Virus record (IMG/VR): IMGVR_UViG_3300050494_000042
Source: a virus
Direction: 5' to 3' (one strand)
DNA: 64,000 bases
The notes below the pieces were generated by a model that was given only the letters and a program-made list of their open reading frames with translations, did no database searches and was not told the origin of the DNA. Position numbers and translations under genes: made by a program. Shown here piece after piece: positions 5,685 to 55,082 of the stretch. Positions within the stretch are counted from its first letter, which is position 1. Each line of letters starts with the position of its first letter.

Positions 5685-5770
5685 TTTACTCCTACGAACC
5701 GGGAGTAATCGGTGTATGCCCGGAACAACACTCAGTTGCAACTACGAACCCGTTGCAGTGGGACTTTACC
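5685..5770 (-). repeat. Two-unit mini-array (near-consensus repeat plus variant-C repeat)
   Basis: GGTAAAGTCCCACTGCAACGGGTTCGTAGTTGCAAC (5735-5770, overlapping the upstream stop TAA), a short spacer, then ACACCGATTACTCCCGGTTCGTAGGAG. Confidence 0.8.
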
Positions 5771-6278
5771 CACGCAGATTCTGGTACGCACGCATGGTCG
5801 CTTCCTGAACCCGATCTACCAGTTCCCGCCAGGCGTCGTGATCGTTCTCGATATCGATCCCCGTGTCTCGTGCCAGACCATCCAAATATCCATTGTCATG
5901 CCCTTCATACGGCTCGAAATCCCCTACTGATGTTTGATTGGGATACCACACACCCTGCCGCATCCCACCCGCGATCCCGGCAGCTTCGTTTTCTGAGTTG
6001 GCAGATTGGTCGTCATGAACAATCCCACCACCAACGCGAACGTGATTCCCCAAATGAGTCATCACGGAGCCATTGAGGAATCCACCATGATCCCTCAACT
6101 GCATATTGGCGAGAGCACCATCAATCCGTTTCCATGCCGCCTCGTCGGAGCGTCCGTTCTCGTCTAGCCAATCCGCGTAGACCCAATGACGGGTGGAATC
6201 ATGTGGATTCTCGTCAATAGATCTCTGGAAATCACCATCGGAATGGGAGTAATTCGTGGGCTGCACGTTTGTAGTCAC
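5766..6278 (-). CDS. TIGR02996-domain protein
   Basis: FQRSIDENPHDSTRHWVYADWLDENGR; RBS GAGGAG before GTG 6278. Confidence 0.7.
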   Translation of the reverse strand: MTTNVQPTNYSHSDGDFQRSIDENPHDSTRHWVYADWLDENGRSDEAAWKRIDGALANMQLRDHGGFLNGSVMTHLGNHVRVGGGIVHDDQSANSENEAAGIAGGMRQGVWYPNQTSVGDFEPYEGHDNGYLDGLARDTGIDIENDHDAWRELVDRVQEATMRAYQNLRG

Positions 6279-6299
6279 GATGACTCCTCGTCGGTTGGA

Positions 6300-6364
6300 T
6301 TTGCAGCTACAAACCCACTGCACTGGGATACCCAAACACTACTATACGATTCCCCATTTGGCAA
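6300..6364 (-). promoter_or_regulatory. Promoter immediately followed by a solitary repeat
   Basis: TTGCCA-N17-TAGTGT (6364-6336), then GGTATCCCAGTGCAGTGGGTTTGTAGCTGCAAA (within 6300-6335). Confidence 0.75.
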
Positions 6365-9300
6365 ATACCCGATGTGTCTCCGGGAACTTCTGCTTCAGGG
6401 TTTCCCTTCCGTTGGGGGTCGCATGGGCAAGTCGGAAGGCTTCCCCGAATCCTTCGGTTGGGTCAATGGCAGAATATTCGTTCAAGTTCCCACTCTTGAT
6501 TTCCTTGTGCCAGGCTTTCTTCCACTCATCCGATGTCGAGAGTTGGTGGTATCCCCCTTCCTTCCCCGCAGGATGGGACCAATCAAGTGCATGGGCGACT
6601 TCATGGGCCAGGACGCCCATCGGGTCATTTCCCCCCGCGTGGAGGTGAACGTGCCCCACATCCGGGTCGTGGAAGCCGTTGGGGGCTGTGAACTGACTGT
6701 TCGGGTCATCCGCAGCCTGTCCCGTGGCCTTCGTCCAGTGATTCCCCACATGCTCCTGTGACTGATGCGAAACGATGTGACTCAGCCTGCCTTGTCGGAG
6801 TCGTTCGATCACGTTCGGTGAAAAGCTCTTGAGCATGTCGAACGTCTGTCCTGCCAGGTGAGCAGCCTGATCCGGATCTTGGACGTGGTGAACCAGAGCA
6901 TTCGCGATGGAAGACGCGAAGGTATCGTGATTCGTCCAATCGACGGGATGGTGAACGCTGCCAGTGTCTTGTTGCTGCTGGGGCTGTGCGTCATCGTATC
7001 GGGACGCCTGGGTCGGAGGTTGCTGTGTTCCCAGATTCTTGACGTATGCTTGCCGGAACGCTTCCTCCATCGCGTGACGGGATGGCCATGCAAATGTCTG
7101 CGTCGAATCATCCCACCTGCCGTGATGGGGCTTCACCTTGCCGTCTGGGTCGGCCTCCCCGGTCCATGCCCACGTTTCACCGGGGATGTGATATCCAAAG
7201 TTCTCAACTCCTTTTGGGAATCTCCCGTCGTTCGTCCCATAAGCAAAACCCCCCGGTGAGGCGACAACCCACGGTCGATCCGCGAATTCCTGCTGTCGGT
7301 GTCGTGGGATTTTCGGTGGCTTCCAGGTGGAATACCATTCCCCGAGATTCCTTCGGAATTGAGCTTCTTCTGGCTGGCCGTTCTCTTCCAGGAAGTCCGC
7401 GTATGCCCCATGCGTGGTGTATTCGTGGGGATTCTCGTCAATCTTCCGCTCGAAGTCCTCGGCGGTAGGTTCCATGTACATAGCCGGTTTCGGATAACCC
7501 GAGAATCCCGGCTTGCGTGGTGGGGAGTGCTGGAACATCACAGAGCCAGGAATGTATTGCCCCTTCCGGTAGGGTTTGTCACGATACGTCATTGCGACCG
7601 GAGCTTGACGACGCTCGTACCTCGTGAACCCAATCGGCTGTTGGGGTTTCCTCCGATCCTGTCCGAACGACGGAATGAAAGTGTTGTTTCCTCCAGGGAA
7701 ACCCATGTATCGCTGATGACCCAACACGGGACCATTCACCGGGGGAGTCCCTGGTTGCTTCCCTGACGAAAAGAATTGCATTGGAGGGCTGATTCCCCCT
7801 CCTGGCGGAACAGCGTGTCCTGGCATCGGTCCGGGAATCCCCGCAGGGGAGGGAACCTGAGCCAGTTGCATTGGTGGGGCTGTGGGTTGCACGCCCATCA
7901 TCATGCTCGGATCGAGGGGACTTCCAGGAGGAACCGGTCCCTGTCCTGGCATCCCGTCCGGAGGCATCACGGGGGGAAGTTGTCCCATCTGCGGCAATTC
8001 CGGCCCCTGTGGACCCATTTTGGTCACGATGGTGGGTCCACCGGGGAACGCCTGAATGACGACCTCATCCCCCTCTTCTGGTCGGGAGAAATCACCCGCT
8101 TCCATCAGTTCATCGAGCTTGATGTACCCGCCCATGCTCAAGATCAACTTGCCCGACTGGACTTTCTCTTTCTTTTCCAAGTCGGGGAGGATGCTCTTGA
8201 ACCTGACCGGGAACTTTGCCCACGGGAAGTTGTACTTCTTCAGGGGAGCCAGAAGATCGTTAGTCAAAACTTCGTCAAGACGATTGGTGTCATATACTAA
8301 CAACTCATCCTTCGTTGCTCTCGAAAGCTCGGCACGTCCGGTGCCTCCAAGCCCATCCCCCTTATCCGCTCCGGAGGACATGCTCTGACCAACGAACAGC
8401 CTCTCAATGTGTCGGTCGAAGAAGTCCCTCACCAAGTCTTGAAGTGCTTTCAGTCCAGCACTGTTCATCTGGATCTGTTCGACTGCATTCCAGTTCTGGT
8501 CAGGACGACGCGGGCAAACAATTGCAGCTTTCCCAATGATTTTGTTGGCGTTGATTTCTGCCTGGAGCTTCCCGGCTGCGTCCCCTGCGGGGTAATTGAA
8601 AACGAGCAGGTCCATCTGCCCGATGGCCTGCATGTAAGTGATCATCCAGGTCAGGGCGTCGGTACGAAGGACATAGAGCCAGTACACCATTCCCCGCAAA
8701 CCCAATCCCTGAATACTACCCGCTAAGATTCCCTCGAAGAAGTCGGCTGGTTCCCGAACGTGCTGATGGATCACAAACCGTTCTCGCCACTGTTCCCGTT
8801 GAAGGACAAGGGCACATCCACCCCGGTCGGTGTAACGTAGATCCCCGTCCCCCCATGTTTCAGCCTGAATGCCTTTGTCCTTGTCGAAGGATTCCTTCCA
8901 GTCCCCACCCCACTTGGCTCCGTGGTTGGCGTACCAGGAGGTAGTCATCGAATCCATCAAGATCGCGGGGATGCCATCGAAGGTGTACTGGATGGAATCG
9001 CCGTGAACGGGGCTCCACGTCTGGTCTTTGCATCGCTGATTCTTGCCGTAGACCCAGAAGTTGTTGCAGTCAGGATCACGCTGGAAGAATCCCTGCACGG
9101 CGGATCGACCGAACCACACTCCTTGTAGAAGTGACCACTTCAACATCGAGAACTGTGGAGTAGATTCCACGATCTTGGTCATGGAATCCCGAACGTACAT
9201 CTGCTTGCTGTCGCGGTCATCATCGACCTCTATCCTCCAGTCGCGGTTCATTGTCGGTAAAAGTCTCTCCCACAGAAGCCCCCACAGGAACCCATCCCGT

Positions 9301-54535: not shown

Positions 54536-54771
54536 TCATCAACGGGACGGGTCGTTGAAGTGCGGACCCCTTTTATGAAACCACGTCCGAACCTTCCGGT
54601 CCTGTCACCGACCTGCTCCCCGATATTCTCCGCGTCAGGAAGAATAATCTTGGGTTTTGGTTCTGGTGGGGGAGTGGGCTTCCAGGGCTGAAACACGAAC
54701 AGGAACAAACTGACAACGAACACAACACCCAACAAAATCAGCCATCCAGGGGGTTTTTCATCGTTTCTCAT
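54529..54771 (-). CDS. Small membrane protein
   Basis: One transmembrane segment plus a Pro-rich stretch. Confidence 0.5.
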   Translation of the reverse strand: MRNDEKPPGWLILLGVVFVVSLFLFVFQPWKPTPPPEPKPKIILPDAENIGEQVGDRTGRFGRGFIKGVRTSTTRPVDEK

Positions 54772-54779
54772 GGAAATCC

Positions 54780-55016
54780 TCACTTCGACTTCTTGCGTTT
54801 CCGTGTCTTCTTGGGTTCCGGGGGAGGTGGATTGACGAACTCCTCCACCTGGATTTCCAGTGCCTCGTACCGCTGCATGTCCTCTTCCCAAGCTCTTTTA
54901 CAAAGTCGGTACTGAACCGGAGTCAAAACGAACCGCTGCTTCACTTTGACACGGAATTCAAAGACTTTCTGCCAATCTTCAGCGGACAAGAAGGTTTTCT
55001 TGCGTGTGACATCCAT
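54780..55016 (-). CDS. Hypothetical protein
   Basis: RBS AGGAG between the repeat and the ATG. Confidence 0.55.
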   Translation of the reverse strand: MDVTRKKTFLSAEDWQKVFEFRVKVKQRFVLTPVQYRLCKRAWEEDMQRYEALEIQVEEFVNPPPPEPKKTRKRKKSK

Positions 55017-55046
55017 TCGTGGGCACTCCTGTTCATGCGTCTGGGA

Positions 55047-55082
55047 TTTGCAACTACGAACCGGTTGCAATCGGCTACGGCC
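55047..55082 (-). repeat. Solitary repeat at a stop/start junction
   Basis: GGCCGTAGCCGATTGCAACCGGTTCGTAGTTGCAAA; overlaps the upstream TAG. Confidence 0.8.

Follow-up and report, generated by a model that had tools for sequence, protein, structure and literature searches.

A 36-nucleotide pseudoknot repeat dispersed over a phage genome is probably the guide-RNA scaffold of a phage-encoded Cas12m

The stretch of viral DNA analysed here, 64,000 nucleotides (nt) of the IMG/VR record IMGVR_UViG_3300050494_000042 and called the window below, is a segment of a phage genome. It carries a 36-nt element in 31 copies, seven of which are the repeats of a CRISPR array next to a cas12m gene, while 24 are solitary. 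The element folds into two interlocked helices that have been conserved by compensatory changes. It is probably the repeat-derived guide-RNA scaffold (handle) of a type V-M system encoded by the phage itself, with the solitary copies proposed to serve as docking sites for Cas12m on the leaders of messenger RNAs (mRNAs). A preliminary description of the window had noticed compensation in a short repeat stem. This was correct and is explained by the known CRISPR RNA (crRNA) scaffold of Cas12m, so the fold itself is not new.

Fold of the unit and the strand that folds

Read on the gene-sense strand, the unit consists of eight unstructured nucleotides, a 3-nt stem strand, an unpaired A, the 7-nt 5' strand of a long helix, the complementary 3-nt stem strand, six nucleotides (UUNGUA), the 7-nt 3' strand of the long helix and one final nucleotide. 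The long helix has 6-7 base pairs (bp), and its 5' strand sits between the two stem strands while its 3' strand follows the 6-nt loop. Interlocked in this way, the two helices make up an H-type pseudoknot; its first loop has 1 nt and its third loop 6 nt, a sterically feasible arrangement. The sequence of the long helix varies, for example TTACTCC/GGAGTAA, TCGCAGC/GCTGCGA, CCACGAC/GTCGTGG and CTGCTTC/GAAGCAG. What the preliminary description had taken for a drifting loop is actually the unpaired A followed by the 5' strand of the 7-bp helix, which pairs with the seven nucleotides after GTA. Of the downstream word TT(A/C/T/G)GTAG, described as mostly kept, the final G belongs to the long helix.

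The unpaired A (A12) is invariant within the window, 28 of 55 distinct copies have G.A as the outermost long-helix pair, and for 22 of 26 distinct copies the long helix is part of the minimum-energy fold. G.U pairs were counted 35 times and A.C mismatches four times, and the folding strand is therefore the transcribed gene-sense strand. The same count argues against a duplex DNA operator, and together with the feasible geometry on the gene-sense strand it settles the strand. A pseudoknot read on the plus strand was dropped because its loop lengths were impossible, with just 1-2 nt to cross a 7-bp helix, and a likeness of the loop to the yeast branch-point word was a coincidence.

Detection of the copies and their stem classes

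A 21-nt degenerate pattern matched 25 times in the window against 0.94 expected. When only the helices were specified and the sequence was left free apart from G/C in the short helix, 27 matches were obtained on the gene strand versus three on the other strand, one of which is a genuine inverted copy at 2810-2845. A covariance model was then given the long helix as its only structure, and the alignment was not fitted to the 3-bp stem, since the stem had been left out of the model. It recovered the 31 copies of the window at 27.6 bits or more, the next best match reaching 11.2. In the Rfam scan of the window, a tRNA was the sole match and no family reached the gathering score for the repeat. 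Scans of IMG/VR with the exact pattern and with the Cas12m protein were both without matches, as were scans of metagenome contigs and of genome contigs with the repeat pattern.

Of the 31 copies, 19 have the stem CCC/GGG, seven CCG/CGG and one UCC/GGG, and in four the stem is broken. All six CCG/CGG stems with full pairing named in the preliminary description (5685-5720, 10107-10142, 10497-10532, 49708-49743, 54500-54535 and 55047-55082) were recovered, and a seventh at 18700-18735 had been missed. The exceptions listed there also hold, with C.C at the third pair of 10568 and the middle pair of 19804, and C.A at the third pair of 30552 and the middle pair of 47655. The site at 20047, given as CCG/CGG around a 7-nt loop, turned out to be a shifted reading; its alignment needs no indel and gives CCG..GGG, and the 3' strand of the helix has been lost.

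Conservation by compensation

A search found 33 homologs of Cas12m, and the contigs around seven of them were fetched (related contigs are given below by labels such as L001). All were phage-like and most carried an array after cas12m. A second covariance model over the window and these seven loci (8 phage contigs) yielded 121 copies, of which 77 were distinct. Among these 77, pair 9-22 is C-G in 45, G-C in 29 and U.G in one, and never unpaired; pair 10-21 is C-G in 74 with two breaks; and pair 11-20 is C-G in 47, G-C in 22, U.G in two and U-A in one, with three unpaired. Altogether, 97.8% of the cells of the 3-bp stem are paired. None of 500 shuffles matched the observed stem pairing or covariation score, and pairing dropped to 16-55% when the partners were slid by 1-3 columns. 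In the window alone, 94.9% of the cells are paired, and at pair 11-20 C-G was counted in 17 distinct copies and G-C in seven, with two unpaired. Each of the four Watson-Crick combinations of the stem was seen (CCC/GGG, CCG/CGG, GCC/GGC and GCG/CGC), as was CCU/GGG. Changes on both sides were found for seven of seven long-helix pairs and two of three stem pairs, again with none of 500 shuffles attaining the observed pairing or covariation score, and the stronger covariation lies in the segment earlier called the loop, not in the 3-bp stem.

The proposal of the preliminary description that selection acts on the RNA structure is thereby supported, as covariation grew after the homologs had been added. 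Its argument against neutral relics and simple DNA operators likewise holds, as pairing was kept despite the divergence of the helices and G.U pairs far outnumber A.C mismatches. As the compensation shows, selection acts on the single copies, which appear to be working RNA elements, not decayed leftovers. The helices are kept by compensation, presumably because what Cas12m reads is the fold, along with some single-stranded bases, and not the helix sequences.

INDEPENDENCE of events was sought in contrasts between phages, because the shuffle control ignores relatedness. The closest relative of the window is L001, with 68% Cas12m identity. For the syntenic copies after the portal gene, CCC/GGG in the window corresponds to GCC/GGC in L001, which is a double change, and for those upstream of a kinase-like gene CCC/GGG corresponds to GCG/CGC. 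The second unit upstream of the kinase-like gene has the long helix TTACTCC/GGAGTAA in the window and GCGTTGC/GCAACGG in L001, wholly different yet complementary. Placed on the Cas12m tree, the array repeats require pair 9-22 to have flipped three times or more. As the 5' strand of the long helix lies between the stem strands, copying or conversion of both stem strands would carry that segment too; it differs almost completely between copies.

The phage has two repeat types. A second array lies ~17.8 kb past the end of the window and was reached via contigs that are 100% identical in their overlaps. Its repeat (L012:12440-12475) is identical to the unit 10497-10532, and 10568-10603 is an exact chimera made of the 5' 19 nt of the type-1 repeat and the 3' 17 nt of the type-2 repeat. 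A unit beyond the second array has a CCU/GGG stem and a doubly compensated long helix. Also outside the window, this phage has a further solitary copy (L012:6471-6506) 31 nt before an ATG; its stem is UCC/GGA, and the U-A is a fifth pair type for stem position 9-22.

The cas12m gene, its leader and the array

The gene at 11021-12925 (minus strand) encodes a type V-M effector homolog of 634 amino acids (aa), which matched the PDB entries 23vw_A, "Cas12m" (E 1.3e-43), and 8hio, Cas12m2 (E 8e-5), and was not recognised by Pfam. Its Asp residues at RuvC-I and RuvC-III are replaced by Ala. About 30 homologs at 35-68% identity have Ala or Ser at RuvC-I and D-R-A at RuvC-III, and the next outgroup retains Asp; the dead state is therefore old and maintained. 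None of the described Cas12m RuvC triads (D-E-D, H-D-D, N-D-D, HQK) matches the clade, which bears on DNA cutting and not on membership in the repeat family. From its residues, the phage Cas12m is expected to bind nucleic acid and not to cut DNA. Cutting of pre-crRNA by Cas12m was reported to be independent of RuvC (PMC11013384, PMC10442227), and scaffold binding and processing could therefore persist in the dead clade.

The seven 36-nt repeats of the array (10424-10898, minus strand; located by the covariance model) are spaced by 71-78 nt and start at 10863, 10789, 10718, 10646, 10568 (the chimera with the C.C mismatch), 10497 (type 2, CCG/CGG) and 10424. The array begins 122 nt downstream of cas12m and its spacers are unique. 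In its leader (10899-10940, minus strand), a promoter-like TTTGCT ... TAGAGT was read by eye just before repeat 1. The adjoining cas12m, the regular 36-nt array with unique spacers and the scaffold fold place the locus in type V-M.

The guide scaffold of Cas12m2 was described as a 36-nt repeat whose 5' end is disordered and which has a short stem, a flipped-out A, a 6-bp pseudoknot helix and a final C; in the cryo-electron microscopy structure a non-canonical G:A closes the pseudoknot helix and the final C is read base-specifically (PMC10442227). For GoCas12m a comparable triplex-pseudoknot core was reported (PMC11013384). Compared by its text description, without a 3D model, the published scaffold maps onto the unit with a one-nucleotide offset. 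By this analogy, the 3-bp CCC/GGG stem is the "stem" of the Cas12m crRNA scaffold.

The leader of cas12m itself contains a solitary scaffold (12954-12989, minus strand; CCC/GGG, TCGCAGC/GCTGCGA), with the ATG 28 nt downstream. It adjoins a putative sigma70-like promoter (12990-13020, minus strand; TTTGCC, ~17 nt, TGCTAGGGT), found by a motif scan and read by eye. Among the relatives, the leader copy is intact in L006 and L009, duplicated in L004 (covariance-model matches at L004:9856-9891 and 9915-9950) and degenerate in L001 and L002. A conserved word, TTTCTTCCCCTAACG, precedes cas12m and repeats in L002 (9918-9932) and L004, the latter with seven sites (e.g. 941, 2567, 3551, 14966 and 9985), and is possibly a phage-specific promoter. 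Second arrays were also seen upstream of cas12m in L009 (5377-5768) and L006 (9453-9969), both without adaptation genes. Their repeats differ in sequence and all keep the fold, each unit of the L009 array having a different stem and long helix, and the two arrays appear to drift under structural selection.

Placement of the solitary copies

All 31 copies of the window have the orientation of the adjacent gene. This includes the sole plus-strand copy (2810-2845; CCC/GGG), which lies 26 nt before the ATG of a plus-strand open reading frame (ORF) of 77 aa, and the copy syntenic to it in L001 (21370-21405) is likewise inverted along with its gene. The stop codon of the upstream gene is found inside about half of the units examined, where it falls within the first 8 nt or is the UAG of the loop, and in most cases the next start codon follows 14-34 nt downstream, i.e. 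in the position of a spacer. In the motif scan, sigma70-like promoters adjoin the unit in the cas12m leader, the unit at 6300 and the decayed 20039, and similar promoter-like motifs precede the array and the unit at 50243. Where a promoter abuts a unit, the scaffold would therefore form the start of the transcript. Tandem pairs account for 14 copies, the gap within each of the seven being 10-25 nt, and the replication module (30637-47654) has no copy by the covariance model.

The remaining copies are all on the minus strand. At the lower end of the window, 5735-5770 (CCC/GGG; the upstream stop codon lies within the unit) is the first of a tandem pair with a 14-nt gap and 5685-5720 (CCG/CGG, TTACTCC/GGAGTAA) the second. 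About 11 nt after this pair, a terminator-like hairpin with a run of six T (5652-5684, minus strand) stands directly before the GTG of ORF 4957-5652, and the pair might be a short stand-alone RNA or an attenuator. The copy at 6300-6335 (CCC/GGG) directly follows the stop of the portal gene and has a start codon 21 nt downstream. Between the portal gene and the array lie 9657-9692 (CCC/GGG, CTGCTTC/GAAGTAG with one G.U), the weakest copy 9708-9743 (27.6 bits; UCC/GGG with U.G and a poor long helix), 10049-10084 (CCC/GGG, CTGCTTC/GAAGCAG) and 10107-10142 (CCG/CGG).

Upstream of cas12m, copies were found at 15896-15931 (CCC/GGG), 15947-15982 (CCC/GGG, CTATCGG/CCGATGG), 17543-17578 (CCC/GGG; start codon 23 nt downstream) and 17589-17624 (CCC/GGG; first of a tandem pair with a 10-nt gap). 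These are followed by 18700-18735 (CCG/CGG, ACGCATC/GATGTGG) and 19804-19839, in which the middle stem pair is broken (C.C) and the long helix is intact. The decayed copy at 20039-20074, behind a promoter at 20078-20108, has lost its 3' helix strand and was undetected by the covariance model. The copy at 27613-27648 (CCC/GGG) is identical to the array repeat in positions 9-36 and differs in the first 8 nt. At 30552-30587 the third stem pair is C.A and an ATG lies 27 nt downstream, and 30601-30636 (CCC/GGG) is the first of this tandem pair (13-nt gap).

In the upper part of the window, the copy at 47655-47690 has a broken middle stem pair (C.A) and the helix CCGCGA/TCGCGG. A T-arm-like word, GGTTCGATTCC, ends just before it (47691-47740) and is perhaps a tRNA remnant; a tRNA-Arg(TCT) gene lies at 48833-48907 (minus strand). 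Further copies are 49708-49743 (CCG/CGG), 49769-49804 (CCC/GGG, CCACGAC/GTCGTGG), 50243-50278 (CCC/GGG, TTGCGGC/GCCGTAA; behind the promoter-like motif), 54500-54535 (CCG/CGG; ATG 14 nt downstream and GGAG in the 3' helix strand) and 55047-55082 (CCG/CGG, TTGCAAC/GTTGCAA; ATG 30 nt downstream).

A solitary scaffold precedes several genes with a TIGR02996 (rpt_mate_G_obs) domain. This domain was matched at the start of at least seven phage proteins (E 1e-18 to 5e-7), encoded on the minus strand at 5766-6278, 18729-19229, 30093-30524, 52012-52749, 53928-54485, 56760-57605 and 58717-59613. Gemmata-like planctomycetes and myxobacteria have this domain in greatly expanded numbers, a hint as to the host of the phage.

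Proposed role and alternative explanations

If the solitary copies are docking sites, all 24 would be transcribed as part of phage mRNAs, some of them starting primary transcripts directly behind a promoter and most lying at gene junctions, where Cas12m would dock. Its binding would lead to cutting of the polycistronic RNA just 5' of the scaffold and/or would cover the ribosome-binding site in the guide position. The outcome would be a Cas12m-dependent control of a set of phage genes, cas12m included. Such a cis mode of action, by mRNA cutting and/or occlusion of the ribosome-binding site, is plausible at somewhat less than even chances. The broader idea that this phage clade uses a nuclease-dead Cas12m as a genome-wide regulator of its own genes, via ~25-30 mRNA scaffolds at gene starts, is a shade more tentative. 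If true, one protein would read a structural tag on many transcripts, and perhaps on their DNA, and would time or dose their expression, its own included.

Several points weigh against docking on mRNA leaders. The four copies of the window with a broken stem pair and the plainly decayed 20039-20074 indicate that not every copy is maintained. The close spacing to start codons would also be expected if the element merely fills intergenic gaps, and the seven tandem pairs are not explained by simple docking. As to the covariation, the shuffle control disregards how the copies are related, and among the compensated copies 10497 and 10568 are not independent mutations. Transcription of the solitary copies, binding by Cas12m and an effect on expression are predicted from the sequence.

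The same scaffold could have another output, in trans on DNA and not in cis on mRNA. Here, each solitary copy would be a single-repeat guide gene with the 17-20 nt downstream as guide, and dead Cas12m would bind DNA of the phage itself or of related competitors and thereby silence or time transcription. Cas12m effectors do act by DNA binding (PMC11013384, PMC10442227), and several units stand directly behind promoters. The arrays of relatives also hold self-matching spacers. The spacer L006:12553-12589 matches L006:3368-3404 in 37 of 37 positions, antisense to a portal-fusion gene; L009:8291-8334 matches L009:12785-12828 in 42 of 44, in the sense of an ADP-ribosyltransferase-like gene; and L001:11907-11941 matches L001:11824-11856 in 30 of 33, antisense to the 3' end of cas12m and with a TTC flank. 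These spacers suggest self-regulation in the related dead-Cas12m phages, not defence, and given them the clade may regulate itself at the level of DNA. For the window, guide genes are nevertheless unlikely. The solitary guides and window spacers gave 10 weak matches in the 64-kb window versus 4-7 for shuffled guides, and the idea that they target other window sites was dropped. The sole perfect target, the adjacent DNA, has the repeat end as its flank and no known protospacer-adjacent motif (PAM) of Cas12m. The first units of tandem pairs leave just 10-25 nt before the next repeat, and a common PAM for the self-matching spacers of the relatives was also rejected, as their 5' flanks (GCA, CGT and TTC) disagree. 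Regulatory cr-like RNAs, of which mini-arrays, scaRNA, CreA and crlRNA are the kinds, have a guide partly complementary to the promoter or gene that they control, and for the solitary-copy guides no match better than chance was found within the 64-kb window.

Three further readings are less likely than guide genes. Solitary repeats mimicking CRISPR repeats are known from phages (PMC10651486), and the copies might accordingly be RNA anti-CRISPR (Racr)-like decoys that absorb the Cas12m of a host. This is highly improbable for a phage that has its own cognate cas12m and arrays and that carries 24 junction copies in place of one or two small RNA genes; the wide divergence of the helix sequences would likewise be unexpected if a single host repeat were mimicked. 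The copies could also be neutral remnants of array fragments that recombination had spread, with the compensation arising from the copying of entire units or from conversion between the two types of repeat; this would fit the two types with their own arrays in this genome, the exchange visible in 10497 and 10568 and the one decayed copy. Conversion of both stem strands would, however, homogenise the 5' strand of the long helix, and this segment differs while 95-98% of the stem cells pair. Syntenic copies in L001 are changed on both sides, and the slid-partner controls, which keep relatedness, collapse, so that this origin deserves very little credence. Finally, the copies might act as DNA, be it as a single-stranded recombination site, a hairpin promoter or an operator. 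Units of the same orientation between genes resemble cassette arrays, and the attC sites of integrons have a conserved fold with variable sequence. The excess of G.U over A.C on the transcribed sense strand, the identity of the fold with the Cas12m guide scaffold beside cas12m and its array, and the lack of an integrase-like gene among 40 ORFs scanned make a DNA site very doubtful. Docking of Cas12m on scaffolds in mRNA leaders is the explanation favoured here.

Other genes of the window and of related phages

The window encodes a Mu-type portal, a small terminase, a family A DNA polymerase, a ThyX with an intein, and RecA-like and gp32-like proteins, and nearly all of its genes are on the minus strand. 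The portal ORF (6342-9542, minus strand; 1066 aa) has a C-terminal match to PF07737, the anthrax lethal factor N/C-terminal domain (residues 973-1060, E 1.5e-7), so that a fused metalloprotease-like or ADP-ribosyltransferase-like module is predicted there; a tblastn search of the portal protein against GenBank phages gave no match. ThyX (40810-42879, minus strand) is split by a LAGLIDADG-type intein-like insert (PF02511 and PF14528). For the plus-strand ORF 62353-63576, no record as a gene product was found. Among the related phages, RNA polymerase beta and beta' domains occur together in a 2331-aa protein of L008, and a 1540-aa protein of L009 has an ADPrib_exo_Tox domain.

Comparison with known systems

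The type V-M scaffold, standalone repeats near cas genes and solitary repeats in phages are known. With the scaffold of TtCas12m2 and GoCas12m, the unit shares the 36-nt repeat, the short stem coaxial with a 6-bp pseudoknot helix, the flipped-out A, the G:A closure and the final C. No trans-activating CRISPR RNA is involved in either case, and the effector binds DNA without cutting, which is a prediction for the phage protein. The loop has 6 nt here as compared to 5, and Ala occupies the RuvC-I and RuvC-III positions of the effector. The system is also phage-borne without adaptation genes, and most of its copies are solitary in mRNA leaders.

Standalone repeats upstream of cas12a (bioRxiv 10.1101/2023.03.03.530964) likewise lie outside the array and often closely precede the effector gene. 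This pattern is matched by the cas12m leader copy, which recurs in relatives. Those repeats number one or two per CRISPR-cas locus, whereas 24 are spread here over 52 kb at unrelated phage genes. Racrs (PMC10651486) are, like the present copies, phage-encoded solitary CRISPR repeats that fold like a crRNA handle; they mimic host repeats to disable the host Cas, in contrast to the many divergent copies found here, for which effector and arrays are the phage's own. The locus of the myxophage MV-1, reported in a September 2026 preprint as the first phage Cas12m (bioRxiv 10.64898/2026.09.14.751636), also has an adjacent array and no cas1, cas2 or cas4. Its MvCas12m is reported to have an intact D-E-D triad and dispersed repeats are unmentioned, whereas the clade described here is RuvC-dead with solitary copies.

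The pattern seen in the window occurs in a whole clade with RuvC-dead Cas12m, whose arrays are sometimes self-targeting, and suggests that the virus employs a CRISPR effector as a device for gene expression, not for defence. For dead Cas12f homologs, we know of no scaffold copies embedded in target mRNAs. The report on these exapted nuclease-dead homologs (PMC13472631) describes RNA-guided transcription, which is similar in that a dead type V effector serves regulation and not defence, and different in that the effector family is another one and the systems are bacterial, not viral. In the literature, no description was found of many structure-conserved solitary scaffolds at phage gene junctions. 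The new point is thus the location, with two dozen solitary copies at the junctions of phage genes and a fold kept despite the divergence of its helices, and, if the proposed role is true, this would be a natural example of a small programmable pair of RNA tag and reader.

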